Assembly: GCF_964194155.1 (NCBI RefSeq)
Contig: NC_135886.1
Location: 9,052,001-9,116,000, forward strand
Direction of reading: 5' to 3'
DNA: 64,000 bases
Origin: Cetorhinus maximus
Taxonomy: Eukaryota
Under the pieces are notes generated by a model. That model was not told the origin of the DNA. It saw nothing but the letters and a program-made list of their open reading frames with translations, and searched no databases. Shown here piece by piece: positions 9,836-64,000 of this stretch (positions within the stretch are counted from its first letter, which is position 1; every line of letters starts with the position of its first letter). A program made the position numbers and the translations under genes.

Positions 9836-10174
9836 TCACTTATTTGTCATACATAAAAATATGGCTCCAAAACCGAAAGCCAAACTTCCTCCTATTGCCA
9901 AACCGATGGCAATCACTCGAATGGCCATGTTTGCGCTTTTAAATAAGTCCTTTACTTTATCCCAGAAGGATTTCCCCTTCTTCTTTGCCACTGGGTTTCC
10001 TTGAAGGATTTCCATCTCCTCCTTTTGCTCAGATGACAGCACTTCGTAATAGTTCAGCTGCACCAGGTTTTCAGGGATGATTCGGACTCCAATTAGCACT
10101 CGCTTGACAACTTGCATCGTTTTTGAGTTCTGCACTTGGCACATATATGTCCCAGCATGCTTCTCTTTGGCGTT
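9836..10174 (-). CDS. TMEM81: TMEM81 coding exon 2 (Ig F strand, transmembrane helix, stop)
   Basis: C-rich tract then ataaag|AAC, a phase-0 acceptor. Encodes HAGTYMCQV (Ig G-x-Y-x-C), VKRVLIGVRIIPENLVQLNY and the TM segment VIAIGLAIGGSLAFGFGAIFL. Spliced product is 154+112=266 aa. Confidence 0.9.
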   Translation of the reverse strand, partial: NAKEKHAGTYMCQVQNSKTMQVVKRVLIGVRIIPENLVQLNYYEVLSSEQKEEMEILQGNPVAKKKGKSFWDKVKDLFKSANMAIRVIAIGLAIGGSLAFGFGAIFLCMTNK

Positions 10175-10732
10175 CTTTATGGGCGGAAGTGGGGGGGAGG
10201 GGGAGGGGGAGAGAGAACGGTGGGCCCATGTTGTCAATATTAGGCATTACACAAAACATTCCAAATACAGAGACAGCACTTAAAAACATGACTGCTTCGC
10301 ATCTAAGGAAACAAAATAAGGGCAATCTGCTGAATAAGACACACTCGCCATCTTGTACTAATTTCTGTGAAAATTAGAAAATTATGGCTTTTGCTCTGAG
10401 ATTTGCTTTGCCGGTTATGAAGACATATGCAAAGAGCATACCACATTCGCTGCTCCAGAGCACGGACCACAGATGTCGTGGGGGTTGGAGGAGGGGTAGG
10501 GTTCAGGTGGGGGGAAATTAAAAGGATCAGATTTTTGGTCTCTGACTTAGATTTGAAGGAACATCTATTCTGCCATTCAGAAAAATACTCTGTCCTGTCC
10601 AAAATCAGACAGTTAAATCACATACTGGTTTTAAATGGTAGTTAAGCATTGGTGACTTGAATCCCTCCATTGAGAGATGACCATGCAAACTTGCAGGACA
10701 TTAAAGTTATTGCAGCTCACCTGTGGCTCATT

Positions 10733-14060: not shown

Positions 14061-14240
14061 GAGGAGTTTTTTTTTTTATTTTGTTCATTGAATGTGTGCA
14101 TCACTGGCAAGGCCAGCATTTATTGCCCATTCTTAACTTCCCTCGAGCTGGTGTGGAACTGCAGTGTATTCCATCATACTCCTGATATAGTACTCGAATA
14201 TACGTGGATAGAAATTTTAATAAAGCAAATTGATACTCAC

Positions 14241-14702
14241 CTTTACGATAATCATCCATGGTGTTTTTGAACCCTTTAATGGAAAGATTTTGAAGAGGTA
14301 TAGATCCGTTGTCACAATTCCTCTTGCAATCTTCCACACAAAGATGAAATCGGACGACCCTAAAGTTTTGATAGTCGCATCCAAGCAGCTAATGCTCAGG
14401 GTGGCACCCACGGTGGTGGTTTTAGCGATAAGGCCACAGTCTTGGTTGATCAGGCACAAGGCATTTGTCGATGTGCAGTTACTGACGTATCCCTTTTTGC
14501 TCACCTTGCAGTAATACTCAGACCTCCAGCCTAGCCCACAGGTTTTGCTGCAGGGGCTTACACTTACAACTAGGAGTCCAGAGAATGTGACATTCTCCAA
14601 CTCTGGCGGCAGGGTGTTAATGATCTCTTGGCAAGCAGCCAGATGCATCAGGAAAGTAAAAAAGATGAGGACAAGGTAGATACTGGCATGAGGGACCAGC
14701 AT
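14241..14702 (-). CDS. TMEM81: TMEM81 coding exon 1 (signal peptide, Cys-rich hairpin, first part of Ig domain)
   Basis: MLVPHASIYLVLIFFTF signal peptide. CSKTCGLGW..C..C..CL...CG and FVWKIARGIVTTD match the TMEM81 signature (human CTVTCGLGY and FTWRLARGVISTD, recalled). Phase-0 donor AAG|gtgagt at 14241/14240. Adjacent to RBBP5 as in other vertebrates. Confidence 0.92.
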
Positions 14703-14885
14703 TTCTTTAGGGGAAGGGACAGGGAGAGAAGAGGTGGGGGTGGGAAGTGGGGGGTTAAGGCTGTAGACAATCTAATTTTAACAAGTCTTTGTTACATCAA
14801 CCTTCAACACAATGGAGCTTTGAGAACAATGGAACTGAGGTTACATCATGACAACATTGGTAAGGCTGTAGATGCACAAAACAAT

Positions 14886-40110: not shown

Positions 40111-40890
40111 GTTGTTGTGGTAGGCAATATCACCAGTGATAAATAGAAAAACTGCAAACACAAGGCATGTCAGCCAACTGTAAAAACAAAAGACGGGACC
40201 AACTCTGTTCTGACAAAAGGTCTAAACCCAAACGCCAAGAGCTTTTCACTTCAGGAGGAGGACATGCCCATTCTCAATAACAGCATCACAACTAGGCTCG
40301 GAGCCTATGGGGTAGGGAAATAAATTTGACAAAACTATCCGGGATTTCCAATCCTGACCGTCACTGGCACATTCTAGGAAATGCACAGGGACAGGATAAG
40401 GATCAAGCCTTCTGAGTGTCTATTTCTCTCTCCAATATTGGTAAATAGGCAGTCATTGTTCACCCTTTCACATCACTGAAGGATACACCTAGGGCACATC
40501 ACTGGAGGACTTCTGGCATCTGTGGAACTGTACCCCAGCCACAAGGAGAGTGGTAAAGGCTCAGCAATGGGGGAAAAAAAAGAGTTGGATTTGATTACAT
40601 CAAAATCCTTAATGGTATGGAGACCACCGTACATCAATAGATACAGCCAGTTGTGACAAAACATTGGATCTTTATGACTTTAGCCCCTATATGCTTTACT
40701 AGGTGACATTGAAGAAAGAGAAAAATAGACCTTTTAAAAAAAAGATTCGTTTATTTAATTAAAAAAAAGATTAAGGTTGGGGAAAATTAACTTTCCCCTT
40801 TACAAATACATTGAGAATCGACACATCTGATCTGCCACCGACAAAACTGGAAAATTGAAGCAAAAGAAAAAACAAGGCTTTAATGCTCAC

Positions 40891-41053
40891 CTTTCCCTTG
40901 GCATTCCCTGTGTAAATATACTCTCCCCGTCGGTCAAAAGATGCCACGACATTAAGATCAGAATCATCATCTACAGGTAGAACTACGTGCTTAGAGTCAG
41001 AGAGAGTTAACAACACCGGAGCACATTTCATTGGGCAGACCAGGACCCTGTTC
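40891..41053 (-). CDS. RBBP5: RBBP5 exon 5
   Basis: NRVLVCPMKCAPVLLTLSDSKHVVLPVDDDSDLNVVASFDRRGEYIYTGNAKGK, 163 nt. Confidence 0.95.
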
Positions 41054-42317
41054 CTGTTGACACAGAGCAAATACAAATAAGTAACAAATACATCAACTAA
41101 GGGCAAGCCCTTCATTATTAAACAGAGCTAACCCATGATTAGCCCTCAGAAACCAAGTAGGAGATACCCAACACACACAAAGCTATTGAAGGTAATGTCA
41201 TATGTATTCATATCATTGGTGTAAGGGATGATTATAAACTACTTTCATTCCAGGAGACCAGTTAACATCTTCAGATATTAAATACCACTTATTGGACAAT
41301 AGGAGCTGGCAATGGTTCTGCTGTTATTTATACCTCCTCTAGAGCCATCTTTTGTATCTTTACATCTCCTTTTTGCCTTGCACCATCATCTCATTTGCTC
41401 CTACCTGGACCCAACCACAGACCTTTCTCACTGTTCTTTCCTCTGCCCCTTTAGCCCTGCCTCTGTATTTGGCAATGAACAATTAAATCTTTAACCTCCT
41501 CTAGTTCTGATCATAGACCTGAAACCTTAACTCTGTTTCTCTCTTCACAGATGCTGCCTGACCTGCTGAGTATTTCCAGCACCTTTTGGTTTCCAAATCT
41601 GATTTTCAGCATCCGCAATATTTTGTTTTTGACCTGCAGTAATTAAGTTTGGCTTCTGCGATTCCTGGCACAAAGTTTCTAATAATGTCGAAGAAGCTGA
41701 ACAGAGGCCAGGCACGTCACTGCTGGGTGACAGTAAGCTCAGAGCAGCAATGGTGGAGGTTCCCACTTACTGTCCTCCATAAAGGAATAGCGTGCAAAAG
41801 AATCAGGAAATAAACTTCCCTTTAAAATATGCAAGGGAACAAAAAAAAAGGAAACCATTGACTTAAAGCTCTCTGTATAATTTGCGTTCATCACTAGTTT
41901 GGCCTGGGGAATGGTGGACTTTCTGATGCTCACTCAGAAGCTAAGGGCTGTTAAACTTCCCAACAATCTATGCCAATAGAGCAACTCAGCCACAAGACAG
42001 CCTTCTAGTGTGCGAAAGGGACACTTCCCATAACTGCCACCCCGTGGTTCAATTTAAGTGCAAATCAGGGTCACGTTGGTCCCATGCCCACCCGAGACTG
42101 GGCTAAGATTGCCCAACCTCATGTCAGGTAGGAAACAGTCCCTTTAAAATTCCTAAGTTTTCACATTTCAGAGAGGAACATAAATAGAAAAATTAGAAAG
42201 GCGTTTCACCCATCTTACTTTCATAGTCCTAAGGAAGTCTTTTGGACCGGAGATCTGAAATTTTCTACTTTCCAGGCAATTTCATTGTAAATCCATCCAA
42301 ACTCTTGAAATACTTAC

Positions 42318-42458
42318 TGATCTCTGGGATGGAACTGCACTTTGAGAACTGGTGAGGGAAAACGGAACCTCTGGTCACAGTCTCCGGACAGAACATCCCA
42401 CAGTGACACGATGTTATCAGTTGAAGCACTGACTAGTTTATGCCCATCTCGACTCCAA
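42318..42458 (-). CDS. RBBP5: RBBP5 exon 4
   Basis: WSRDGHKLVSASTDNIVSLWDVLSGDCDQRFRFPSPVLKVQFHPRD, 141 nt, AG/GT bounded. Confidence 0.95.
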
Positions 42459-42499
42459 CTGTAAAACAGAAGAAAAATAAGCGATTTTTTTTTTTAAAT

Positions 42500-42732
42500 G
42501 TATTCTTCCAGTAAGCATAGCATCGCTGGCTGGGCCAGCATTTGTTGCCCATCCCTAATTGCCCTGGAGAAGGCGGTGGTGAGCTGCCTTCTTGAACCAC
42601 TGCAGTCCAGGTGGTGTAGGTACACCCACAGTGCTGTTAGAGAGGGAGTTCCAGGATTTTGAACCAGCGACAGTAGAGCAACAGCAATATATTTCCAATT
42701 CAGAATGGTGTGGGGCTTGGAGGGCAACTTGC
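42500..42732 (-). mobile_element. HER1-like LINE 3' end next to the RBBP5 exon 4 acceptor
   Basis: Same tail block as the other HER1-like copies. Confidence 0.7.
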
Positions 42733-43339
42733 AAAGTTAATTGTGTAAAATTATCGAGAAGATAACGGACTAACATTTTGTAAGATGTGTAGTTTTCCTT
42801 TATAATTTTAATGTTTGCCATTGGATTCTCATGAATTGTAGTCACAATGAAGAATACCGAAACACTCGCACAAATCTATTAAAATCAATTCTTTGTCAGC
42901 TAAAGGGGAAAGGTCAAAATGAGTGCTTTTGGTTTAATAAATGGAGCCACATGCAACTCTGCCCATAACTAAAGAAACGAACCCAAAGAGAAATGACATT
43001 AAGAGTGCGACAGCCAAGGAGACACATGCATCAAATCTGCTGTGGTAACAAAATTTGATTATTTTTTTTTAAAACTTAAAAAATGTTGCAAATATATAAA
43101 TCAAAACAAAAAGTGTGTTTTCCCTTTTAACAGCAGACAAATCAATGTTTCAAAGTTGCTGAGAATTCCCGCTAAAGGGAAGAGTGGATAATGCAGTAGA
43201 GCTGCTACACTAAGGAGAGGCTCTGCCAAGTGGCAGAGCAAGATTATACACAATCCTGCTGGCTTCTGATATTCAACTTCACTGGTCACAGACCAAGGAT
43301 TTGGGATGAAGGAAGGAGACAAAAGAGGCGATCAGATGT

Positions 43340-43450
43340 CATTCCACTGTAGACCCAAACCTCTTTGGAATACTTACTGATCTAGAGGATGAAACTGACA
43401 TTGAGAACTGATGAGGGAAAACTGGAACGGTGGTGCTGCCCTTCCACTTT
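43340..43450 (-). pseudogene. Decayed partial duplicate of RBBP5 exon 4 (3' half plus donor) inside intron 3
   Basis: gttccagttttccctcatcagttctcaatgtcagtttcatcctctagatca|gtaagtatt aligns by eye to exon 4 gttccgttttccctcaccagttctcaaagtgcagttccatcccagagatca|gtaagtatt. Confidence 0.8.
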
Positions 43451-45376
43451 CTGGTTGGAGGAGAGAAATGCAGATACTCTCAAACAAGTAGCCATGTGGG
43501 AGAACAAATAACAGCTCATCCAAAGGGCAGGGGGGAGGGGGGGAAAATGAGGCGAGGGGCGCTTCTTTGAGCATGTAGCAAATAAGATAGAAAATTGAAG
43601 TCCTTAATACTTCCCATAATCAAGTCCAAATGTGTCATATTCTTAGTGTAAAATTCATGGCACACTGCACTAGTAAGAAACTGAGTTTAAAAATAAGGGA
43701 AGTGTGTGCACTCGTGAGGTATAATCACCAGGGAAGCAGGTGGTTCTATGCATGAATCTCATGGGTCAGCGTTTGGGTCCTGGTTGTTGCTTGTCGACAT
43801 AAAATGACCTTGATGCAAAAAGCAATTGTAGGATCCAGCTGTGGTGTACATCAATTTGGGACTGCAACAGAGCCAAAGGAAGTAGCTCAAGTTTCACAGG
43901 ATAACCTGGATCAGTTGTTGAATGAGGCAGAGAAATGATAAATGAAATTTAAACATTGATGTATGCAGGGTATTGAAGAGTGAACAAGCAGCAAAGGTAT
44001 ACACTCAAGACAACAAATTTCGCATTAAGAGGCTTTGACAGGGAGTGATAGCAGACCCATTACTTACGAGATCAAGACAACGCAAAAGGTGATTTACAAA
44101 GCAAACAGATGCTAGGTGAGCTGGAATCACGCAGCACAAGTGTACAGAGTTCATGATGGTGCTCAGTAATGCATTGGTCAAGCCTCACTTGAAATAGTAA
44201 TGAGCAATTCTGTCACTTCACATCAAAAGGGGCAGATGTGCATTGGAAAATGTGCAGAAACAGTAACATGTCCCAAATATAAATGGTGATGAGCCACAAA
44301 ACAGGCCAGAGAAGGTTACAGAAGAAAGGGAGACCTCACTTAGATATGGAAAGTATTTAACAGTATAGATAGGTGATCATAGAATATTGGATTAAGCTCA
44401 GTCCAAGCCAATAGAATGAGGGGAAATTAACTTAAATTAATCGAAAGTCAATTTTGAAAAACAAATTCTTAACTCACTGGGGGATAAGTGGAATGATCTG
44501 TTTGGTAAGATAGCTTGATGCTAGATTGATTCTTAAGTGTATACTTCATTAATTATTGATGGACGACTGCAACGGGAACTTTGTGTGACAGAATAGAAAA
44601 CATGCGCTATGAAAATGGTTGAACATTGGGGATTTAGATGCAGCTCACTTCTGACTGGGGTTCTGAAACATTAACACCTGAAGGAGAAAAGATAGGTAAT
44701 CGTTCTGCTTTGCATTTCCAGAATTTTGTTTCAGATTTCCAGCATTTCAAGTTTTACCTTTACCAGTGAACACACTACCAGTGATTCTTCCAGAGGCACT
44801 CAAATGTCACCTAGCCTCTACAAAACATGAAACCCAAGGCATGGAATGCATGGCTAGTTACCAGCTTACAAATCAATATGTACATTTCCACTCCCACCAC
44901 TCACCAACAGCAGCAGCACAGACCATGCCCTGATGAAGGCCAGAGTAGGACAACAGTGGGCAAAGTTGGCATGTAGCAGAGCCAAAGGCTGAAAGTTTCT
45001 AACCTTGATTCCCAATTTGTGCAGCTAACCAGTCTCAGCCAAAAACAAAGGAGAATGGGAATTTGGCTATCAGGCCCCTCCCTAACACCTGGGAAATGAA
45101 AAATTGACTCTTTATCTGGAATCTCCCACTGGGAAACATACACTGATAGACAGCTAGCCCTTCCCCACATTCAAACAGCCTGTCAATGCACAGGCTCTAA
45201 ACACATTCACTGGGAGTGATGACCTGAGGATGTAACAGATCACACTTGTGCAACTATACCTCAACATGGAGTCAACACAAATTGGAAGTGGGGAGCTTGC
45301 AAAACATGTTTTTTTTTTAAATATAGAGACACAAGTACATGTACATATACACACACACAAACAGGTAACCAATTAC

Positions 45377-45549
45377 CATAGTGAGCAAACTGGATGGATG
45401 TGTGCGCTGATGATTTTGGCAATACCCCTCGTCAGGAAGTCCCAAATGACGATACGCCCATCGTTGCACCCCACAGCGAGCAGTGTACCCCACCTGTTAA
45501 ACGTACAGGTCAGGGCCATGCTAATACAATCCAGGGTTCCATCCGCCTC
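45377..45549 (-). CDS. RBBP5: RBBP5 exon 3 (WD40)
   Basis: EADGTLDCISMALTCTFNRWGTLLAVGCNDGRIVIWDFLTRGIAKIISAHIHPVCSL, AG/GT bounded, 173 nt. Confidence 0.95.
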
Positions 45550-45599
45550 CTACACAAAAAAAAATTACACTAAATCACATTTCAGAGAACAGCAAGAAC

Positions 45600-46330
45600 T
45601 TGCATTTATATAGTGCCTTCAGTGTAGTAAAACCATTCTGGGGTGCATCAGAGAGCATAGATATTAGGGCAGGTAAACAAAAGCTTGGTCAAAGATGCAG
45701 CTTTTAAGGGGCACCTTAAAAGGAAAAGAGGTAGAGAAGTATAGTGAGGGAATTCCAGAGTTTAGGGCCTAGACTTCCAGTCAGTGAAGGTGCAGAGGAA
45801 CTGAGGATGAGCAGAGTGTCAAAATTGGAGGAATGCAGAGTTCTCAGTGGGTGTAGGGCTAGCAGGGGTTTCTGCATTAGTAAGGGATAAGAGAATGGAG
45901 GGATTTAAAAAAACATGGATGGGAATTATAACACTGAGGTATTGCCAAATCAGGAACCAATGCACATTAGCAAGCATGGAGATTATGTGAGAACAGGGGT
46001 TTGTGCAAGTCAGGATACAGACAGAGGTCAAGGTTGCAGATGGTGTAAGATGGAAAGCTAGCCAGGAGTATTAAAATAGTCAAGTCCAGAGGCAACAAAA
46101 GCACTGATGTGAGGTTCAGCAGCAGATGAGCTAAGGCAGGGACAGAGAAGGGCAACATTACAAAAATAGAATTAGGCCTTGGTGATGGAGAGAATCAAGT
46201 CAAGCAGGATACCAAGGTTACAAACAATCTGGTTCAGTTTCAGACAGTGGCCAGGGACAAGGATGGAATCGAAGGCTAGCAAAGTGGAGTTTATGGCAGG
46301 GGTTGAAGGCCATAACAGATTTGAAGTGTG
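45600..46330 (-). mobile_element. Decayed L2-like LINE fragment
   Basis: Minus-strand peptide VCNLGILLD and purine-rich plus strand, similar to 26030-26380. Old and degraded. Confidence 0.5.
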
Positions 46331-46624
46331 GTGAGTGTAAGATGCTCGGGAGGAACAGGTGACTTTGGACTTATAGTTCCCAAATCTCTCCACTACTGGG
46401 GGTTTTCCTCGCCTTGTGCCTAGTCTGTTGCAGACTTATTGATGGAGATTAACACCCATGAACAGTCAACACCTCCATTATAGTTGTATAATGTGACCAC
46501 CCGGATGGTAGAAGACGAACTAGATGGCTCCTGGTCTGTATTCATCCAACAATTCCTGTGTTAGGGAGGAATATTAGTCAGGAACCACAACCACTTTCCT
46601 TCAAACATTTCTATGGGATCATTT

Positions 46625-47012
46625 TTTTTTATTCTTTCATGGGATGTGGGCGTCACTCTAAATGCCAGCATTTGTTGACCATCCTATATTACCCTTGAAC
46701 TGAATGGCTTGCTAGGCCATTTCAGAGGGCAGTTAAGAGTCAACCACATTGCTGTGGGTCTGTAGACCAGACCAGGCAAGCATGGCAGATTTCTTTCCCA
46801 AAAGGACATCAGTGAACCAGATGGGTTTTTACAACAATCAATAATAGTTCCGTGGTCACCATTACTGAGACTAGCCTTATATTCCAGAGTCATTAATTGA
46901 ATTTAAATTCCACCAGCTGCCATGGTGGGATATGAACCAGTGTCCCCGGAGCATTAGCCTCGGTATCTGGATTACTCATCCAATGACATTATCACTATGC
47001 CACCACCTCCAC
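46625..47012 (-). mobile_element. HE1-like SINE
   Basis: Colinear with 1326-1675. Confidence 0.7.
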
Positions 47013-47449
47013 TTAAACAGGGTGAAGGGTCTCAGATTTTGAATTTATCTGCAATACATCATTCCTAGAAGTCCAGCACTCTTGAACCAGAGCGTCAGTC
47101 CAGGCTATGGTATATATTCAGAGGTTGAACTTTAGCGCTAAGGCTGACTCCTTGATCTGTGCTTACTCTGAGCCATATCATAGGTGATTCTGGGCTTTTC
47201 ATTACCTACAACTAAGAACAGACCTATGCAACTGCCAGCTGAGAGAAGGGTCTTTCATTCCATGACTGGAATCAAACCCATATCCCAGCGATTACAAGCT
47301 AGAGCTGCCGCAACGATATATTAAGACTCATAACTTTTACATTGTTGAAAGTGTAGATTTTGCTGAGATGGTTAACATCTTGATAAATAAAAGGGCTCAA
47401 AGAGAACTTTTAACAGCAATTGCTAAAAACACAAGTGTTTCAAACCTAC

Positions 47450-47475
47450 CTCGGGGTAGTTCTGTCCAAAGGACT
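47450..47475 (-). CDS. RBBP5: RBBP5 exon 2 (SFGQNYPE)
   Basis: cag|AGTCCTTTGGACAGAACTACCCCGAG|gtagg, 26 nt. Confidence 0.93.
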
Positions 47476-48809
47476 CTGTTTAAAATAAGAGATAATGAAA
47501 ACAGATCAATTTAGATACCAGATCTTGAAAATAATTCAAGATTCTTTAACCCTGCCACCGTACACGACAGATATAAATAGTCACATTTCATCTTTTATAG
47601 GATACTTTTCCACTCCCCAACACTAACCTAGCAGTGTCCATAGATTCACAGAGTACAGGAGGAGGCCATTTGTCCCATCATACCTGTGCTTGCTCTTTGT
47701 AGACCCCTGGTTTTTCACCAAGGCCCTGCAAAATTTTTCCTTCGCCAAATTTTTATCCGATTTTCCTTTTTGAGGGTTAGTTACAATTGAATCTGTTCCC
47801 ATGACGATGTGCAAGCCTCCTCAGTTACAACCCACTGGGAGGCAAGCAAGAGGGCTCGAAGAACATATACAGCCTGTGAGCTTCCCTAAGGCAGGGCAGG
47901 CAGGCCGAGGCTGTGAACTCATGTTTTGAGAAATTTAGGATCCTCGCCCTCATTATCCGAGGTAAAACACCTCTTTTCTGGTGCTGGTTTGTGACGTCAC
48001 ACATTCTTATTTAATGCACAGGGGCGTGGGACTAATTCGACGGGTCTTTCAGAGATCTGGCACAAACACAATGGGCTGAATGGTCTTTCTCTGTGCTGCG
48101 TGATTCTGTGTCAAGTTTTGGAGGAGTTCTTTCATCAATTAAAATAACACAAATATTTAAGAACAAGCAAATCAGCAGCTGTGGTGGAGCCCCACACCAC
48201 TTAGAAAATTCTCAAGATCCACAACAGACATCACTTGATACTATTCTCACTCAAGTCTAATTCAAACCTTTCGCACATTACTAATATTTCAAAATATTTA
48301 TTCACAGGACAGGAACATTTCGGGTAAGGTAAAGAATGTATTGTTCATTCTAGTTGCCCCTGAGGTGGTGATGATGAAGCATCTTCTTGAACCATTGCAG
48401 TCTACGTGGTGAAGATCCTCCCAGAATGATGTAGGGAGGTAGTCCCAGGATTTTGACCCATCGACAGTGAAGGAACGGTGATATAGTTCCAAGTCAGGAT
48501 GGTGTGTGGCTCAGAGGGGAAACTCACAGGTGATGATATTCCCAAACATCTTTTTCTTCTAGGTGATAAGAGATCACAGGTTTGAGAGTTGCTGTCAAAG
48601 AAACCTTGGTGAGTTGCTGAACATCTTAGAAATCAAACAGACTGCTTCATTCTGGTGGTGTGGAGCTTCTGAAGTGATGTCGGAGCTGCATTTTCTACAT
48701 TTCAACAGTAACTACACTTCAAAAATATTTAACTGACTGTAAGGCACTTTGGGGCCACCAGAGATCATGAAAGACTCTATAGATACACAAGCCTTTCTTT
48801 TTTTCAGTC

Positions 48810-49680
48810 CCCTATGGCACCCACCCTACATTACCTCCACTCCCCTCACTCTCCATCCACTTCGTCTTCCATCTCCCCCGTCCTTCCCACTCTCCACTAG
48901 AAATCCCGCTCTTTCCCCCTTCTCCTCCCCCTCAGCTCCACACTCCATCCACTCTCTACTCCCCCCTCCACCTCCCCCCTCCATGCCACCCTCCAGCTCC
49001 CCCTCCTACCCCCTCTGCCCCATCCAACCCTCCGCAATCATGTCCTCCCCCTCCATCCCCACTCTTCTCCATTCCCCTAGACCCCATCCTTTGCCCCCTC
49101 TGTCCCCCAAACTTCCCTGTGCTCCTCCCCCTCTCCTTCACTGCCCTGTACCCCCATCCTTCCCCCACCCCCATACTTCCACCCTCTTTCGTTCCCCCGT
49201 CCACCACGCCATCCTACCCCACATCATCACCTCCTCCTGCCCCCACTCCACCTCCTTGCCCCCTCTGCCTCCTTCTTCCAGGTCCCCCCCATCTGCCTCC
49301 TCCTTCCAGGTCCCCCCCCCCCATCCTCCCTCCCCCTCTTTCCCACTCCACCAGCCCCCATCCTGAGGTTATAAAAGGTGCTACAAAAATGCATACCTTT
49401 CTTTTTTTATTCCTCCATGGAACCCACCCTCTCTCCCCCACCTCATTCCCCTCCCTCCTTCTCCCCATCATTCACCTCCCACTCATTCCCCTCTGTCTCA
49501 TTTCCCTCCTCTTCATTCCGCTCCCTCCTTCCCCCCCCCCCCTCCCTCCCTCACTCTCCTCTCCCTCCCCCTCATTCCCCTCCGGCCCTGAATCCTCCCT
49601 CTCCCCCGGACCAAGCACCAGCTCCACTCACCCAGCAGCTCCAGGTTCATCCTCTCTCTCTCCCTCTCTCTCCCTCTGTG
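48810..49680. repeat. C/T-rich low-complexity tract spanning RBBP5 exon 1 and the start of intron 1
   Basis: About 870 bp almost devoid of G on the + strand, with many CCC runs. Confidence 0.9.
49632..49650 (-). CDS. RBBP5: RBBP5 coding exon 1 (MNLELL)
   Basis: ATGAACCTGGAGCTGCTGG|gtgagt, 19 nt, at the edge of the CpG island. Confidence 0.93.
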
Positions 49681-49689
49681 GATTTTCTC

Positions 49690-50420
49690 CGGTGTTTTAT
49701 TTTTTTTAATTTATTTTCTCTCTCCCGGATCCCGGTCAGACACAAGCCGCCGTCCCGATTGCCTCAAATCCCCGGCCCCGGGCCGCCTCCTCCCACTCCT
49801 CCTCCCGGTCCGACAGGAAAATCCGCCGCCGGCCGCTCCGTCCCTTATAAACCGTCCCCGGCGCGGAGAGCGCCGAGCGCGACAGAAGGTTCCGGGTCCC
49901 TCCCCCCCCAACAAACTGCACAGACACAAAGGCAAAACCCTGCAGATGCTGGAAATCTGAAGTAAAAAAAACAGAAAATGCTGGAGATACTCAGCAGGTC
50001 TGGCAGCATCTCGTGGTGGGAGGAACAAGAGTTAAGGCTCCTTTCATCCTGAATGTGAAACCTTTCCTCCTTTTAAGACCCCCTCATAAAAACCTGCCTC
50101 TTTGGTCGGACGATCAGACGATCCCCCGGTTTTTCGTCGAGCGTCCCGGCGCCTGGACGGTTTCGTCACAATTATTGAAGCGTTCCTGTTTTCAGCTCTC
50201 TCCCATCTCCCCCCCCCCCCTGGCGGGAGTGGAATGAGATAAAATTGAACAGCTCCATCCAGGTTTGCGCATGGGCATCCCGGTTTTGCCGCTTCGCCAG
50301 CATTTTTCTGTTTTTATTTCAGATTTCCAGCCTCTGCGGGATTTTGCCCACTTTGCCCGATGCAGCGCGATGTTACATTTCCGGATAAGGCGTGGAAAAC
50401 AGTTCCAGGCGAGGGGGGAG
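49690..50420. promoter_or_regulatory. CpG-island promoter of RBBP5, possibly bidirectional
   Basis: The only CpG-dense region of the window. TTATAA at about 49844-49849, an NRF1-like TGCGCATGGGC at about 50266, directly upstream of the RBBP5 ATG. Confidence 0.7.
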
Positions 50421-50529
50421 GGGGGTGGTGGGGGCAGAAAAACAGGTGGCAGGAAGGTGGGAGAAGTTTGTCCGAGCTGTTTACACCCACAGAGCTTGGT
50501 TTCCTTGCACCGTGGTGGGGAATCAGAAG

Positions 50530-54660: not shown

Positions 54661-55210
54661 CATGTCTCTCTTTTTCAACAATATTCAAGTTCTGTGCTAC
54701 CAAGAGACTGTTCCATGCTTTTATTCTCTATTTGTAAAGGCCAGAATCCCATGTGCAGTTTTAACCACTTTCTCAACCTTCCCTGCCACGTTCAACAATT
54801 TGTAGACATGTATCCCCAGGGATGTCTGTTTCAGCAGGAGTGTGTGAAGCCGCCTCATACATTGGTGTAGGGTTCTCATCCCTCCCTCTCCACATCTCCG
54901 ACATCAACATGTGGTAAAAAATGCAAGACATGCCAGTGGCAAAGATGTCATTATTATGGGTGCAGGAACAGCCTCGGGCAACTACACACCTTGGTGAATA
55001 AATGGGTGGGATTAAAGTGTTTGCATCGCCGCCAAGAGTTTAAGAAAATCTCAAAGAGAGAATCTCTCCAACAAGGGAGCAGCACGGGGTTTTGCTATTT
55101 CTCTTCTTTGCTTTCTCTGCAGGTTTCCCCAGCCGCTGGGCTTTGGTTCTTATCAGCTGTTCTCCCTGTCCCACCAGCGCTCCTTTCACCTTGGCTGAGC
55201 GGCGAGGACT

Positions 55211-55390
55211 ATGTGCAGACCCGTGCCCAGTGGAATATCGATGCTGGGGAGAATGCTCCCACCTGCATGTTATTTTATTCTGCTGGCCATCGCACTGGTT
55301 GCTCCGAGACTGGCAGGCAGGAGCACTTACGAAACCCTAGCAGTCTCCAACAGAACTGTGGAGAGCTGCACTCAAGACTGCTCACAGCCG
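55211..55390 (+). CDS. First coding exon of a probable IL-17 receptor family protein (signal peptide, ESCTQDCSQP)
   Basis: Exon bounded by strong acceptor tttctctgcag| (55122/55123) and donor CCG|gtaaga (55390/55391). Encodes MLPPACYFILLAIALVAPRLAG signal peptide, an NRT sequon and CxxxCSQP ending in phase 0. The start codon could be 55211, 55241 or 55253. Confidence 0.6.
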
Positions 55391-56059
55391 GTAAGAACCT
55401 TTACTCTTTTCTCATGAAGGGCTTGCTTCAGAATTCAACAAATAAATGTCAAACGCTGAGGGTGTTGCAGATTGTAAGATCTTTACTGATGTGTCAACTC
55501 GCGGCCAACCCAAGATTCACAGATAACCTCCTCCCAGAAATGTGTCAATTCCAGCCTGTCAGGCATCGCAATTCTCCTGAATGTTGTTAAACCTTTTATG
55601 GATGCGGTGCGGAATGATGTTGCTGACGGGTTCTCTGTGCCAAGACCGCCTGGTTATACTGAGAGTTTCTGTTCCTTGTTCTGTCCGGAAAAAGAAATGA
55701 TTTGACTTTTGGGATTTGGCTGTGCCCATGCAGAACTGCAAAGAGTTGTAAAACAATGACCTTCAGGTAGTCCATGAAGTTTTTAAGTAAAATGAAATGA
55801 TTTGCCGTCTAAAACCCCCAGTGTAGATGTCCCCCGCTCAACAGAAATGAGAGGGGAAGTGTTGCAATATTCTAACCCCACAGCAGGTGGATCAGCCACT
55901 GAAAGAGATGGTTTAATATTTCAGCAACAATTTGCACTTTTCTTTCCAACATGACAAGAGTACAGTTCCCAGGATCGTGGGCTTTTAAATATTTAGGTTA
56001 GGCACCTGTAAATTCTTTTAAAGGGGAATTAGTTGCTTGAAATGCTGTTGGTGCAGAGC

Positions 56060-57275
56060 GTAACATCTACCAAATGCACTGCAGCAAATCGCCAAGGCTC
56101 CTTCGACAGCACCTTCCTAACCCACGGCCTCTACCACCTAGAAGGACAAGGGCAGCAGATGCACAGGAAACATTATTATGACACAGCTGATGGTAAATGC
56201 TGAGCTGCTCAAATCTCAGAGGGAAACTTGAAACAACTGCCATAGCCAATTTTTGCAATTTGTATGTTTTGAGATGCAGGTTTTGAATTCAGTTATAATA
56301 AGAACACCGAATCTCATGGGGTTTTTATAAAGCTAAATTAAACATTTAATAATTAAAAGATTGTAAGCACTTACATATGTCTACAAATTACTACCATAAT
56401 AACTTCCAAAGATTCCCTAATTAATCAGACTTTTAGTTACACCTCCATTAAGGCAACAGTAAAACACATAGATTTAAACAGACCCCTGGCAAAGCACACT
56501 CTGGACAGTCGGATTCAAAATGAGTTTCTTTCAGCTCTGGGTCCTTGCAGACAACCACTTGAGGCTTACAGGCTGAAGGCTTTAGACCTTAGAATCCCTC
56601 TCCTTTTACCAACAGCTTTCTCTTCCTTTATACATATTTTCCTCTTTGAATGCAAATTCTCATTGTATCACTAAGTTTTTTGAACTTTACCTCTTCTAAC
56701 AATAAAACCCTTTCATAGCATCAAGTTTATTAGTAAGCTTAGGAAAAAGTAAACACATTGTTTGGCTTCTTCTGGCTAGGTGTGATACTTCACCCATTCT
56801 TTTGAATGGTTTATTTAAAAATGCAAATTGCCCTCTTTACACTTCACCTTCCAACTATCCTATGTTTACCTGATTAACATTTCAAACCAACTTCTCTTCT
56901 ATACATCAAAGCCTCTAGCCCAGCTGGCTTTAATCCAATTAAGACACAGACACACACAGACACACACACCACTAGAACTCTATTATAAAATAATTTGCAA
57001 TAACATTATAGACATTATTATATCTTGACAACATCACCACCTGGGTGTTCCCCTCCAAGCCACACACCATCCTGACTTGGAAATATATCGCCGTTCCTTC
57101 ACTGTAGTTGGATCAAAGGCCTGGAACACCCTCCTCCCTAACAGCACTGTGGATGTACCTACACCACATGGACTGCATCGGTTCAAGAAGATGGCTCACC
57201 ACCACCTTCTCAAGGGCAATTAGGGATGGGCAATAAATGCTGGCCCAGCCAGTGACGCCCACATCCCAAAAATAA
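56060..57275 (+). mobile_element. HER1-like LINE 3' fragment split by a solo LTR
   Basis: LINE sequence stops at ggaaacat (56173) and resumes at acatcaccacc (57031). Confidence 0.75.
56174..57030 (-). mobile_element. Solo LTR-like element with 4-bp TSD (ACAT)
   Basis: acat|TATTATGAC...TCTTGACA|acat. Confidence 0.7.
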
Positions 57276-58239
57276 ATTTTCAGAAATTGAAGGGTTTGGG
57301 GAGCAGGTTGGGGGGAGGTGGGGAAATGAGATGTTCATTGGCCTGAGACACCCCTGAAGATTTTGTCTTTAAAATGAGAAAGTGCCTTTATTTTGTGAAC
57401 TGCCCTGTTTGCTTATAGATTTCACAAGCGAAACCAGCTTCTTAAACCATTTAATCCCCTACTGGAGACAGGAGTCCCAGTATCATAAAGAGAGGACATT
57501 TTGGAAAGTATCTTAACTGGCATCTTGCTCTCAGTTGCATGGCTTCTTAGCATTCTCACCCCCCACCCCATTTATGGGAAGCTGTGCTGCCCACCTCACC
57601 TCTCAAGTGCACAGAACATTTTGACAGATAGTTAAAGGGGTGGGGATTCATTATTCCTGGAGTTGTCCCAAGGTCTGACTCACCCTGCCGGGGTTACAGC
57701 ATTTTCCAAGCAGAACACAAAGGTAATTTCAAAGCCAATGATTACAATGTTTTGCACCTCCCTTTAATTTTTCAATTAATATTTCACTCCCATGGGAGTT
57801 GAGAGCGTGGGGATGTCTTTAATATTTTCTCTGGTGTTCAGTGAAGATTCCATCTCCAGGTCCTAGCCAATATGATTATTCAGACTCTGCTCCCTTTCTG
57901 ATTCAAGCACTTAGGTTTCCACCTCTTAACCACGCCAGAAAAATTCAGATCAAAGCACGTCTTGAGGTGTTCGCATTTTCGAGTCATAGAAATGACAGCA
58001 CAGGAGGAGGCCAATTGGCCCATCGTGACTGTGCTGGCACCAGCTCTCCAAATGGGGCAATCTACTCCAATTGAGCTGCTTTCAGCAGCTACCATGTTGT
58101 AAGAAGTTACCAAGAGGTTTTATGTACATGTCAGCGAGAGAGTGGAAGATGTGGCTGGTGCTTCCCAGGTCATAATGCTGATGTAACACCACACTGTGGG
58201 CTCAGTGCTTTTTTTTCTATTCATTACAGGGTTTGATCA

Positions 58240-58710
58240 TCTCTGGCTAGGCCAGCATTTATTGCCCATCCCTAACTGCCCTTGAGAAGGTGGTGGTGAA
58301 CCACCTTCTTGAACCGCTGCAGTCCATGTGATGTAGGTACGCCCACTGTGCTGTTAGGGAGGGAGATCCAGGATTTTGACCCAGCCAGCAGTGAAGGAAC
58401 AGTGATATATTTCCAAGTCAGGATGGTGTGTGACTTGGAGGGGAACATACAGGTGGTGGTGTTCCCAAGCATCTGCTCCCCTTGACCTCTAGGTGGTAGA
58501 GGTCATGGGCTTGGAAGGTGCTGTGAAGGAGTCTTGGCAAGTTGCTGCAGTGCATCTTGTAGATGGCACACACTGCTGCGACCATGCACAATATTAAGGT
58601 GGTGGATGGAGTGCTGGTCATGCAGACTGCTTTGTCCTGGGTGGTGTTGAGCTCTTGAATGTTGTTGCAGCTGCACTTGTCCAGGAAAGTGGAGAGTATT
58701 CCATCACATG
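58240..58710 (-). mobile_element. HER1-like LINE 3' fragment
   Basis: Colinear with 59980-60450 and with the reverse complement of 15780-16290. Confidence 0.75.
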
Positions 58711-59009
58711 TTCATAATGATGTATAGGACAGGATTGCTTTCATACATTGGAAATCTTCTTCAGGCTAGCAAACTTCAAAGCAATTTCATTCCTGGAAAG
58801 CGTGAGTTGCTTTCAAGGCCAGCATTAATTACCCAATCCTAATTTACTGAATTTGAGACGACATTAGCAGCAACAGCAGTGGTTGTGAACAGCAAAACAC
58901 AGCTTAAACAGCTGTGAAAGTCTCTGTACAGTCAGCAACTGCATAGTGGAAAATCTGATGTTTGTTGCTAAACTTACAAGGAGCGACAGCAACCTTGACT
59001 AACAGTGTC

Positions 59010-59392
59010 AGCCATGGCTCAGTTGGTGGCACTCACATCTCTAAGTCGTAAGGTTCTGGGTTCAAGTCCCACTCCAGGACTTGAGCACCAAAATCAAGGC
59101 TGATAGTTCAGTACTCTTAGAGGTGCCATCTTTCAGATCAGACATTAAGGCAAGGCCCCATATCCTTGGGTAATTTCAGAAGACCCTGTGAGACTATTTC
59201 AAAGAACAGCAGGGGATTATCTGGTCGTTATTATATTGCTGTTTGTGGGAGTTTGCTGTGCACATATTGGCCCCCACATTTCCCATATTACAACAGTGAC
59301 TACACTTCCAAAAGTACTTCCTTGGCTGCAAAGTGCTTTGAGACATCCAGCAGTCATGAAGGGCGCTGTATAAATACAAGTCTTTCCTTTTT
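59010..59392 (+). mobile_element. Deu-domain SINE with tRNA-like head
   Basis: A box tggctcagttgg, B box gggttcaagtcc, Deu block and tail. Confidence 0.7.
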
Positions 59393-59532
59393 TTAACTCT
59401 TAACAAGCTTTGTATTTCCAGCATTGTATAACCGACATAACACACCCTAACCAACAGAATCAGTTTTAACAAATGGAAAACTGTGTGTTATCTAATCATC
59501 TAATGCTCTGTTTGTCATTTGTCTATTTGCAG

Positions 59533-59557
59533 AATCTTCCCTGCCGAGTTATTAAAG
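59533..59557 (+). CDS. 25-nt microexon (NLPCRVIK) of the probable IL-17 receptor family gene
   Basis: tttgtctatttgcag|AATCTTCCCTGCCGAGTTATTAAAG|gtatgt, phase 0 to 1. The joined sequence CSQP-NLPCRVIK parallels IL17RA CSQP-GLNCTVKN (recalled). Confidence 0.6.
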
Positions 59558-59979
59558 GTATGTTTGGTGGTGAGATGATTCGTTTTTGCTTTTTTCATTA
59601 TAAGTAACACGGCGTTAATGCTTCATTGCTTTGTCACACAAGGGGAACAGAGGAAAACAGTCAGTGGAGCATTAGAATTGAAGAATGTACACCTGTGTGC
59701 ACAAATCCTCATCCAATTCTCATTTTGACCTTGTGGAAAATGAGAGATAGAGAGTCGGCAGCCATTTTACATCTCCTCACATTCCTATTTCCATTGAAGT
59801 CCATTGGGAGCGATGTCGAAGGTGGATGCCGATTCTCTATCACCTCTTCTAAGTGGGGTTCCACTGCGGAGTGTTGGCTGATGCTTCTGCTCCTCATCCA
59901 AAGGGTATACATTTGCAGGCCACTTGCGCACTTGCCAGCAACTCAGCTAAGATCAGTTTTATTTTTTATTGCTGTATTT

Positions 59980-60455
59980 GTTCACGGGATGTGGGCTTCA
60001 CTGGCTAGGCCAGCATTTATTGCCCAACCCTAATTGCCCTTGAGAAGGTGGTGGTGAGCTGCCTTCTTGAACCACTGCAGTCCTTGTGGTTTAGGTACAC
60101 CCACATTGCTGTTAGGAAGGGAGTTCAGCGACAGTGGAGAAACAGCGATATAGTTCCAAGGCAGGATGGTGAGTGTCTTGGAGGGGAACTTGCACGTGGT
60201 GGTGTTCCCATGCATCAGCTGCCCCTGCCCTTCTAGGTGATAGAGGTTATAGGTGCTGTGGAAGGAGCCTTGGTGAGTTGCTGCAGTGCATCTTATAGAA
60301 GATACACACTGCTGCCACTGTATGTCGGTGGTGGAGGGAACGAATGTTGAAGGTGGTGGATGGGATGCCAATAAAGGGGGCTGCTTTGTCCTGAATCGAG
60401 CTTTGTCGAGCTTCTTAAGTGTTGTTGGAGCTGCACTCATCCAGGCAAATGGAAA
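59980..60455 (-). mobile_element. HER1-like LINE 3' fragment
   Basis: AWMSAAPTTLKKLD peptide and shared tail. Confidence 0.75.
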
Positions 60456-61491
60456 GTTAATGTAACACCAACATGAGAACTGAACGGCTTGAGTTTTGTG
60501 GTCAGTTATGGAAATTACCTGCATTACAACAGTGATTACACTTCAAAAGTATTTCGTTAATTTCAGTGCGCTTTGGGATGCCCTGAGATGGCTGAAATTG
60601 ACAGTGAGTATCAGCAGGAAATTGGCCTGTGGGGTTGGAGGCTAGAATCTACAGACTAGTCTGATCTGTCCTTCCATGATGCTTTCATACAGCTTTTCCA
60701 GCTGAAGTCACTGGGCTATATTCAGGAGCAGGAACTCCCCAGGTAGCTCTGGTAGCAATTGTGATATCCGCCTATTTTGCGTGGGGAACATCAGCAAACT
60801 GACCAGAGACTGGAGTGTTTGATCAGAGTAGCTCCGTTGGTAGCACCCTTGCCTCTGAATCACAAGGTTACAGGTTGAAGTCCTACTCCAAAGCGTGAGA
60901 ACAAAAATCAAGGCTGATATTCCGGTGGAGCACTGAAGGAGTGCTACACTGTTCGATGTGTCATCTTTCAGATGAGATGTCAAACTTGTAAAGAACATTT
61001 TTTTTCTTGGACTGTGGCTTTAAAAACTACCATGGCTGCAGCTTAAAAGAGCTGGAGTAAGAAGAAAATCTACAATGTTGCTATTCCCTGGAACAGTGTG
61101 TGCCGGGGTGGACTGAATGGTGCAGGAAAGGAGACCTGGTTTAAGAGGGGACTGCCTTGCAATGGCGTTTTGATTGGTTCCTGACCAAATGACCAGGTTC
61201 TGTGTGAGGATAATGCAGTAGATCAGCTCTTAGCCTGAAAAGGGGAAAGACCTGAAACCTCTCTCTCCTGTGATTTGTAAGACTCCAGTAATCCTGTCAT
61301 AGTAGCTAGCTGGCTATTCTTCACTTCGCTGTATCCTGCTTTCTTTGAGAAAACCCAGTCAGGAGAAATAGGGGGGAAAACGCCAGTAGAGTCATTAAAA
61401 GCAAGTTTCAACAAGAGAACCACAGACTGCAAGTGCTGGGAGACCACCTGGTGTCAGCCACAACAACCTGCAAGGAATTTGGAAGAAAGCA

Positions 61492-63320
61492 ATCACAGAA
61501 TCACAGAGTGCAGAAGAGACCCTTCGGCCCATCGAGTCTGCACCAACACATGGGAAACACCTGACCTACCTATTTAATCCCATTTACCAGCACTTGGCCC
61601 AGCCTTGAATGTTATGACGTGCCAAGTGCTCATCCAGGTACTTTTTAAAGGATGTGAGGCAACCTGCCTCCACCACCCTCCCAGGTAGTGCATTCCAGAC
61701 CGTCACCACCCTCTGGGTAAAAAAGGTTTTCCTCATATCCCCCCTAAGCGTCCTGCCCCTCACCTTGAACTTGAGTCCCCTCGTGACTGACCCTTCAACT
61801 AAGGGGAACAGCTGCCCCCTATCCACCCTGTCCATGCCCCTCATAATCTTGTACACCTCGATCAGGTCACCCCTTAGTCTTCTCTGCTTCATTGAAAACA
61901 ACCCAAGTCTATCCAACCTCTCTTCATAACTTAAATGTTTCATCCCAGGCAACATCCTGGTGAATCTCCTCTGCACCCCCTCCAGTGCAATCACATCCTT
62001 CCTATAATGTGGCGACCAGAACTGCACACAGTACTCCAGCTGTGGCCTCACCAAGGTTCTATACAACTCCAACGTGACGGCCCTACTTTTATAATCTATG
62101 CCTCGATTGATAAAGGCAAGTGTCCCATATGCCTTTTTCACCACCCCACTAGCGTGCCCCTCTGCCTTCAGAGATCTATGGACACGCATGCCAAGGTCCC
62201 TTTGTTCCTCAGAACTTCCTAGTGTCATGCCGTTAATTGAATACTTCCTTGTCAAATTACTCCTTCCAAAGTGTATCACCGCACACTTTTCAGGGTTAAA
62301 TTCCATCTGTCACTTATCTGCCCATTTGACCATCCCGTCTATATCTTCCTGTAGCCCAAGACACTCAACCTCACCGTTAACCACCCGGCCAATCTTGGTG
62401 TCATCCACAAACTTACTAATCCTACCATCCCCCACATAGTCATCTATGTTATTTATATAAATGACGAATAATAGGGGACCCAGCACAGGTCCCTGTGGTA
62501 CGCCACTGGACACTGGCTTCCAGTCACTAAAGCATCAATCTGTCATCACCCTCTGTCTCCTACAACTAAGCTAATTTTGAATCCACCTTATCAAATTACC
62601 CTGTATCCCATGTGCATTTGCCTTCTTTATAAGTCTCCCATGCGGGACCTTGTCAAAGGCTTTGCTAAAATCCATATAAACTACATCAACTACACACCTG
62701 GTCACCTCCTCAAAAAACTCAATCAAATTTGTTAGGCTTAACCACCCTCTGACAAAGCTATGCTGACTATCTCTGATCAAACCTTGCCTCTCCAAGTGGA
62801 GATAGATTCTCTTCAGAATTTTCTCCAATAGTTTCCCTACCACTGACGTGAGACTCACTGGCCTGTAGTTCCCTGGCTTCCCTCTACAACCCTTCTTAAA
62901 TAGTGGAACCACATTAGCTGTTCTCCAGTCCTCTGGCACCTCTCCCATGGCCAGAGAGGAATTAAAAATTTGGGCCAGAGCCTCTGCTCCTCCCTTGCCT
63001 CTCTCAGCAGCCTGGGACACAAATCCGGACCTGGAGATTTGTCTGCTTTTAAGCCTGCCAACACCTCCAATACCTTGTCACTCCCTATATCAATTTGCTC
63101 AAGAACCTCGCAGTCTCTCTCCCCGAGTTCGATACCTTTATCCTCTTTCTCTTGGGTGAAGATGGATGTGAAGTATTCGTTCAACACTCTACCGATGTCC
63201 TCTGGCTCCACCCATAGATTGCCCCCTTGGTCCCTAATGGGCCCTACTCTTTCCCTGGTTATCCTCTTCCCATTGATATGCTTATAGAATATGCTAGGAT
63301 TTTCCCTACTTTTACCAGCT
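61492..63320 (-). mobile_element. Relatively young 5'-truncated CR1 LINE (ORF2 RT region)
   Basis: Long ORF pieces: WRTANVVPLFKKG..PGNYRPVSLTS, VYMDFSKAFDKVPH, GVPQG.VLGPLLF, KFVDDTKIG, LVRPQLEYCVQFWSP. (ATTCTGTG)n tail at about 61492-61507. Confidence 0.95.
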
Positions 63321-63391
63321 AAAGTCAACTCATCTAATCCTGAACCCGGATTGGTGTATTGAACTGTCTTATCTCACCCTTAAAATTCATG

Positions 63392-63394
<3 letters not shown>

Positions 63395-63431
<37 letters not shown>
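63395..63431. repeat. (TG)n microsatellite
   Basis: Perfect TG dinucleotide run. Confidence 0.95.
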
Positions 63432-63434
<3 letters not shown>

Positions 63435-64000
63435 AGTTATAGAGTTAAAAATTAGCAGCTCTTATTTCTTTCTTTTGCCACAGGTTACAGACAATTTGTT
63501 TAATAATTATTTACTTGTTAAGTTTACAAACCTGGTGCTCATATTTTTTTAACCTAAATTAAACAGTTAGGTAGAATTGGGGCAATTTGGTGGGCTGATT
63601 AAACTTGGCACATTTCTCTCAGCTCGGGGAGCAGTGGGGCTTGACACTGCAGCGCACTATCCCCAGTGAATCATGACACAGTAAAGCCCCATCTGCCTGC
63701 ATGGGTGGATGGAAAAGATCCCATGGCACCATTTTGAAGAAGAGGAGGGGAGTTCCCCCCAGTGTCCTGGCCAATATCTACACCTCAATCAACATCACAA
63801 AAACCCCTTTCTCAGCGACCTTTTAGGGGAGAGAGTTCCAGATTTCCATTACCTTTTGTGTGAAGAGGTGCTTTCTGATATCACACTTGAACACCTTGGC
63901 TCTAATTTTAAGGTTAAGCCCCCTTGTTACATTCTCCCCGCGCCCCCTCCCCCACTAGAGGAAATGATTTTTCTCTATCCATCCTGTCAACTCTTTTAAT

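Follow-up and report, generated by a model that had tools for sequence, protein, structure and literature searches.

An IL-17 receptor gene with a three-domain ectodomain beside RBBP5 in Cetorhinus maximus, apparently of an unnamed subfamily

Introduction

We describe an IL-17 receptor gene that begins within a 64,000-nucleotide (nt) stretch of the Cetorhinus maximus genome (contig NC_135886.1, positions 9,052,001 to 9,116,000; G000:C8:9052001-9116000 of the 3.99-Gb genome), hereafter the window. Two exons observed in the window, 55123..55390 and 59533..59557 on the plus strand, are exons 1 and 2 of a real, intact gene for a SEFIR-domain IL-17 receptor, which belongs to a known family and apparently to an unnamed subfamily of intermediate architecture. 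The family is commonly divided into two designs, the two-domain receptors IL17RA, IL17RB and IL17RD (here RA, RB and RD) and the four-domain receptors IL17RC and IL17RE (RC and RE). The receptor described here has three domains, an RA-type front and an RC/RE-type rear. It connects the two designs one exon cassette at a time and allows the sequence of events to be tested. This intact single-pass receptor is probably a member of a separate ancient subfamily and, by prediction, a ligand-specificity co-receptor of IL17RA. We give roughly even chances to the fuller proposal, that it represents an undescribed vertebrate subfamily predating the split of jawless and jawed vertebrates and preserving the three-domain intermediate from which four-domain RC and RE arose by exon-cassette duplication. 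That all of this holds and that the receptor is also the lost IL17RA partner of an ancient ligand such as IL-17D is rather unlikely. To our knowledge, no SEFIR co-receptor for IL-17D is firmly established in mammals.

If the proposal is correct, the ancestor of jawed vertebrates possessed one or more IL17RA partners beyond those of mammals, and humans apparently no longer carry an ancient branch of the family. The receptor would be a concrete candidate for ligand-pairing work in shark, sturgeon and lamprey, and its recognition corrects database labels that hide the gene ("RA-like," "RB-like" and "uncharacterized"). The gene is not described in the open literature searched; Han 2015, Wu 2011 or their supplements may already name a lamprey, shark or coelacanth member. 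The available passages of PMC8187396, PMC13682048, PMC8353272, PMC11136934, PMC8226699 and PMC11942210 do not mention it, nor do the accessible parts of PMC6795676, PMC6238376, bioRxiv 2026.04.13.718218 and one supplement file of PMC3964593.

Results and Discussion

Gene Structure

An earlier note, made from the window alone, had joined the two exons into a cryptic IL-17-receptor-like gene. Position 55123 is preceded by a pyrimidine tract and AG, and the reading frame opened by the ATG at 55211 runs through a hydrophobic signal peptide (core at about residues 19-32 of the exon 1 product, by hydropathy) to ...CTQDCSQP and a GTAAGA donor after 55390, in phase 0. Exon 1 is the first coding exon and carries a 5' untranslated part; the donor, phase and signal peptide stand as first described, and its 5' boundary is uncertain. 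As also described, the exon at 59533-59557 is bounded by AG and GT and reads NLPCRVIK plus one base. It corresponds to the 25-nt IL17RA exon, and the IL17RA gene of the same genome likewise has a 25-nt phase 0-1 exon, which bears out the likeness that had been drawn. The AG-N25-GT spacing is frequent in itself (34 instances within 55391-64000), and therefore the case rests on sequence conservation rather than on the pattern: the exon 2 peptide is kept in all five aligned shark proteins and also in paddlefish.

The gene extends well past the window. Positions beyond it are given below in an extended numbering (G000:C8 position minus 9,052,000). A same-strand SEFIR exon lies 45 kb past the end of the window; searching with it recovers the NCBI model P0002, which has 746 residues and is labelled Cetorhinus maximus, and a single all-GT/AG path of 15 exons translates letter for letter to P0002. 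The coding lengths of exons 1 to 15 are 180, 25, 126, 119, 112, 48, 140, 78, 55, 167, 69, 55, 87, 72 and 908 nt. P0002 joins precisely the two exons first noted, with exon 1 (55123-55390) encoding residues 1-60 and followed by 59533-59557, so the two exons do belong together. Intron 2 occupies 59558..64000 and continues beyond the window. Exons 3-6 (64163-82916) encode the first domain (D1) and include the RA-type 48-nt linker exon, exons 7-12 (85154-99885) form the two three-exon RC/RE-type cassettes of the second and third domains (D2 and D3), and exons 13-15 (102412-110423) encode the transmembrane (TM) helix, a linker, the SEFIR domain and a 112-residue tail, all on the plus strand. What lies downstream is an intact model with SEFIR and FnIII-like domains, not an unrelated protein, and the gene is not cryptic, since NCBI already models it under the misleading name "interleukin-17 receptor A-like."

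Exon 8 (G000:C8:9137540-9137617) is skipped in one Mustelus isoform, which removes part of D2. Two NCBI isoforms differ by a single residue, which fits a tandem acceptor at the start of exon 10 (G000:C8:9142858). Intron 2 holds a fragmented CR1/LINE reverse-transcriptase copy (window 61584-63373, minus strand), and similar copies occur throughout the region.

Family Membership and Ectodomain Architecture

The proposed family identity is borne out by a hydropathic signal peptide, PF16556 matches of 23-35 bits, a TM helix from residue 403 of the model, and a SEFIR domain recovered both in a genome-wide SEFIR search and with PF08357 (104 bits, cut-off 23; Foldseek match to 4NUX, TM(target) 0.81). 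The SEFIR search of the Cetorhinus genome returned 8 matches at 7 loci, one being the receptor under study. By tree, other loci are IL17RA (C23), RB, RD and RE (C6) and an RD-like gene (C250); the remaining C6 locus is probably RC, judged by its position beside RE and by its PF15037 match, the only one found in a genome search with that family. The receptor on C8 is an additional gene, separate from the RA, RB, RC, RD and RE loci, as had been suggested.

Three FnIII-like domains make up the ectodomain; its front, with the 25-nt and 48-nt exons and D1, is of RA type, and the two RC/RE-type cassettes follow. A ten-sequence profile aligns with PDB structures of IL-17RA at positions 28-208 and with those of IL-17RC at 94-350; structure and profile matches are to IL-17RA, RB and RC structures, with D1 matching those of RB. 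Exon maps from the same genome, in which two tied boundaries were settled by keeping phase, give one cassette after D1 in RA, two in the gene under study and three in RE. IL17RA has exons of 25/147/125/127/48 and then a single cassette of 152/75/73; IL17RE has 144/107/124, no 48-nt exon, and then cassettes of 140/57/67, 173/48/46 and 149/63/52. The gene under study combines the RA-type front with two cassettes, all in phases 1-0-0-1. The D2 profile scores 29 bits against RE D2 and 3 bits against RA D2 (shuffles at most 7), and a check for internal duplication between D2 and D3 gave cross scores of -1.2 to 10 bits.

The same three-domain layout is seen in lamprey and hagfish proteins, and lamprey P0018 scores above the cut-off for PF16556 as well as for PF15037. 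The difference in cassette number stems from a duplication in RC/RE or from a loss in the lineage of this gene, and duplication in RC/RE is favoured because the cyclostome proteins have three domains. The gene would then be a slowly evolving sister of RC/RE that retains the three-domain state common to the cyclostome receptors.

Individual features divide along the same lines. With RC and RE, the receptor shares a D2 containing a PCLC..CPF motif, three-exon cassettes, a membrane-proximal CVxVWxxD...C motif, the co-receptor tryptophan (Trp) and alphaF, and they are its nearest relatives in SEFIR and ectodomain trees. Unlike these four-domain, PF15037-type receptors, it has three domains, an RA-type D1 and the 48-nt exon, the shark protein has no PF15037 match at E<=1, its tail is 79-124 residues long against their 5-30, and it lies on C8 rather than C6. 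Its likeness to IL17RA covers the CSQP motif as aligned with the human protein, the 25-nt and 48-nt exons, the PF16556 D1, the PxWFE end of the SEFIR domain and a long tail with a similar Ser-Gly-Tyr motif; it differs from RA in the extra domain, in Trp for Leu415, in a deleted beta-hairpin, in its exclusion from the RA clade and in its locus, true IL17RA being on C23. The PF16556-type D1, the co-receptor Trp and the modelled docking on IL17RA recall IL17RB, which unlike this receptor lacks the extra domain, the RE-type D2, alphaF and the long tail, and which lies on C6. The earlier note's further suggestion of an IL17REL-type protein does not fit a shark protein that has a TM helix and a SEFIR domain and no PF15037 match. 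Mammalian IL17REL is not known to have a SEFIR domain.

Phylogenetic Placement

From 181 SEFIR domains, less 23 isoforms and fragments, we built a 158-row FastTree, in which the gene falls in its own 7-row clade and is excluded from a 48-row IL17RA sub-clade containing the named teleost sequences. In a 49-row SEFIR tree, the sequences from sharks, paddlefish/sturgeon and coelacanth form a clade at 95/98, outside RA, RB (100/99) and RD (100/98), and this clade joins RC/RE plus three cyclostome rows at 93/85. With two long cyclostome rows removed (34 rows), the clade stands at 100/98 and is sister to RC+RE at 90/83. The RC+RE grouping excludes the gene at 96/90 (49 rows) and 98/93 (34 rows), making it sister rather than nested; only 2-3 RC/RE rows, long-branched, enter these comparisons, and the branches of the gene are shorter in the 49-row tree. 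In a 27-row tree of D1-D2, a split at 97/99 places the gene on the same side as RE and the three-domain proteins of cyclostomes, with RA+RB on the other side. On these sequences, RC/RE is best read as the nearest lineage, and the NCBI label "IL-17 receptor A-like" is, on the same trees, wrong. Among the clades sampled, from which IL17REL sequences are absent, the gene is no simple orthologue of RA, RB, RC/RE or RD, in line with the extra receptor first proposed. The 1q32, 3p and 22q13 regions are duplicated blocks, and the gene could plausibly be related to RC/RE and REL as a sister born of genome duplication.

Distribution of Orthologues

We searched 1.84 billion representatives with a profile built from five shark proteins and examined the best 150 of the 340 matches. 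Four score 330-1050 bits, and the next match drops to 119 bits. This top tier consists of shark, Polyodon, Latimeria and Acipenser, to which cluster members add Carcharodon, Hemiscyllium and Huso; conservation across shark orders is 75-80%. Word-index searches recovered only sharks as close relatives, and sharks and paddlefish from a coelacanth query. The gene is therefore not restricted to cartilaginous fish, as had been thought possible, and occurs also in paddlefish, sturgeons and coelacanth and probably in lamprey and hagfish. No teleost, tetrapod, gar, bichir or lungfish orthologue appeared among those best 150 profile matches or in the word-index searches. The representatives were clustered at 50%, which hides members and bears on such apparent absences. 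In the proposed history, sharks, sturgeons/paddlefish and coelacanth would have kept the gene, and teleosts and tetrapods would have lost it.

An ectodomain profile of 342 positions was also run on 179 stored proteins and six exons of the genome itself. The third domain is spanned only in sharks, acipenseriforms, lamprey P0018 and P0161, and hagfish P0035 and P0036; in the coelacanth fragment the profile matches the last strand of the third domain, and in IL17RA and RB the match ends by position 222. Pairwise ectodomain scores are 83-100 bits for the cyclostome proteins, 11-38 for RA/RB types and 2-5 for RE. Lamprey P0018 could be a receptor named "IL-17RF." The name "IL-17RE/RC" for a lamprey receptor comes from Han et al. 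2015, as cited in a passage of PMC11136934, and going by that passage P0018 could be the gene so called. Its 90% cluster holds no named entry from the Han et al. 2015 study; the IL-17RA.1 cluster had one.

SEFIR Signature and Predicted Function

According to PMC12828022, a Trp in the BB loop of co-receptors (RB W368) stabilises the IL17RA hairpin that recruits ACT1, and RA has Leu at that position. The Trp is present in 10/10 members of the new clade, 9/9 RB, 4/4 RC/RE, 7/7 RD and 4/6 cyclostome RA-like sequences, and in 0/13 RA, all 13 of which have Leu. The EF/betaF hairpin segment is 28-30 residues long in members versus 44 in 11/13 RA, and alphaF is present. A role as the ACT1-seeding base subunit appears unlikely because the hairpin segment is deleted.

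When the SEFIR domain of the receptor was modelled 2:2 with that of Hemiscyllium IL17RA, the complex scored 0.65 and the best of three controls 0.00; the docking mark is reached by 51 of 78 solved pairs and 2 of 108 mismatched pairs. At least 66% of contacts are common to the runs, and the partner has a predicted local distance difference test (pLDDT) value of at least 81. The best modelled contact, W482 with RA P527, is the counterpart of RB W368 with RA P544. By analogy with the RA/RB/ACT1 structure, D1-D2 would bind one face of an IL-17 dimer and IL17RA the other, and clustering would let the BB loop (W482, R484, R485) dock on and stabilise the IL17RA beta-hairpin, which would seed the ACT1 filament and then TRAF6/NF-kB signalling. 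The extra tail might tether ACT1 or set receptor turnover, a weakly supported suggestion. It carries a beta-PxPhi-like motif in 4/10 members, and 7/8 members checked have an SSG[YH] motif. The latter motif resembles beta-TrCP degrons.

Transcript Evidence

None of the runs recorded as RNA is listed as containing the SEFIR exon. Exons 1-3 were compared with four runs of small share or the same label; the results are dominated by repeats, with no exon joint among the joints listed. One contig of run X1, from another species and taken to be RNA by guess, is 917 nt long at a depth of 27.5, aligns to 55087-55389 with 21 differences and ends at the exon 1 donor, in agreement with the first splice site proposed. 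It starts from 55087 and continues through the AG at 55122, and use of the acceptor at 55123, assumed in the earlier note, is unproven because this contig, the only one covering exon 1, reads through it. If the contig coordinates are in the original orientation, the remaining 571 nt would equal 1 plus exons 2-7 (570 nt) and would end where the Mustelus isoform skips exon 8.

Weighing the Interpretation

A number of observations count against an ancient RC/RE-related subfamily serving IL17RA. Support for placing the gene as sister to RC/RE is unstarred (93/85, 90/83), with long branches involved, and the cyclostome proteins are not resolved between the new clade and RE. D3 scores 4.7 and 6.7 bits against RE D3 and D4, at shuffle level, and the full-length structure model is weak, with a pLDDT of 32 from five shark sequences and 58 from ten. 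Loss in teleosts and tetrapods is deduced from absence from searches, and the same matches contain no ray or chimaera orthologue, which weakens the deduction. The 55390-59533 joint is not among the joints listed for the four runs on exons 1-3, and splicing and expression are supported indirectly, through the X1 contig. Since the BB-loop Trp also occurs in all RD and in 4/6 cyclostome RA-like sequences, it is probably ancestral and no proof of partnership. Close cousins also pass the docking mark, and the IL17RA in the model came from another shark; the model may be taken as likeness to the solved RA/RB-type complex (9OT1), not as binding. Binding of an IL-17 ligand and signalling through ACT1 are predicted properties.

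The evolutionary part of the proposal has its strongest competitor in a derived three-domain state, in which an RC/RE-like four-domain receptor lost three exons, a history compatible with the co-receptor mechanism. The alignment to shark RE, which passes from the start of RE D3 across a long gap to the end of RE D4, fits such a loss, and exon sizes suit a fusion (167 vs 173; 69/55 vs 63/52), but internal duplication in RC/RE would give an identical alignment. The lamprey and hagfish proteins share the three-domain span, the gene keeps the RA-type 48-nt exon missing from RE, and RC/RE have the longer branches, leaving exon loss a possibility that we hold at clearly less than even. A second IL17RA, that is, a duplicate common chain equivalent to teleost IL-17RA2, is what the NCBI name implies, and the top pairwise matches are indeed IL17RA; the RA-like D1, the 25-nt and 48-nt exons, intron phases common through D2 and a long tail with an S/D-S/Q-G-Y motif point the same way. 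However, an approximately unbiased (AU) test on the SEFIR domain rejects grouping with IL17RA (p=0.004), Trp replaces Leu, the hairpin is deleted, there is one domain cassette too many and the 48-row IL17RA sub-clade leaves the gene out. This reading is already largely refuted and we regard it as very improbable. Teleost IL-17RA2 itself is ruled out as the orthologue by the tree and by domain count, snakehead RA1 and RA2 having two FnIII domains each (PMC11942210).

A genome-duplication sister of IL17RB with a gained domain, serving IL-25/IL-17B-type ligands, draws on a grouping with RB on SEFIR that is not rejected (p=0.16), which also tells against the RC/RE placement; D1 matches RB structures and the modelled interface mimics RB. 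We consider it improbable, given the D1-D2 tree, the RE-type D2, the retention of alphaF and a long tail, both missing in RB, and the existence of three-domain cyclostome relatives. Scarcely more probable is a self-sufficient or regulatory receptor like IL17RD/Sef, signalling alone through its tail or damping other pathways without serving IL17RA. The long tail (79-124 residues, where RB/RC/RE have at most 30) and the beta-PxPhi-like motif would suit it, PMC12828022 raises a possibility of this kind for RD, and the conservation across shark orders seems high for an immune co-receptor. Yet similarity to the shark RD ectodomain is 0 bits, the hairpin segment is deleted whereas RD keeps 44 residues, and the motif is missing in 6/10 members.

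Neighbouring Genes and Other Observations

In the Cetorhinus genome, the receptor gene sits between RBBP5 and DSTYK, which we take to be direct neighbours in humans. RBBP5 (40855..49650, minus strand, running on to lower coordinates; PDB RBBP5, E 8.5e-23) is divergent from the receptor, its ATG at 49650 lying 5,561 nt from that of the receptor, with a CpG-rich stretch at 49500-50500. The head-to-head arrangement described for the window holds for RBBP5; for the pair of TMEM81-like exons (9836-10246 and 14217-14771, minus strand), which encode a signal peptide, a Cys-rich part, a weak Ig match and a TM helix, Pfam and PDB profile searches did not confirm the name. The receptor does not stand in place of DSTYK, as had been supposed, since DSTYK exons lie directly downstream on the minus strand (about 136500-182800, extended numbering). 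Between the two is a 117-codon stop-free frame on the minus strand (L015:6818-7168) with no Pfam match, which may be chance. At window 3183-4544 (plus strand), a 453-codon open frame ending LLSVTTV received no name from Pfam or PDB; we take it to resemble the last exon of PDZRN3/PDZRN4. We know of no PDZRN-like gene beside TMEM81 in humans, and the block may preserve another gene that mammals have lost.

ACT1/TRAF3IP2 is absent from the output of the SEFIR search, which probably reflects the sensitivity limit of an exon-wise search. A second IL17RD-like SEFIR exon (C250:373944-374309), on a small contig and with a short tail, groups as sister to an "IL-17 receptor D-like" protein of Heptranchias and is possibly another retained paralogue. 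The genome also has seven IL-17 ligand matches, five ordinary and two divergent; the divergent ones are near-identical ligand-like exons on tiny contigs (C4531:1402-1614 and C3664:17471-17683), and two of the five ordinary matches form an inverted pair on C6.

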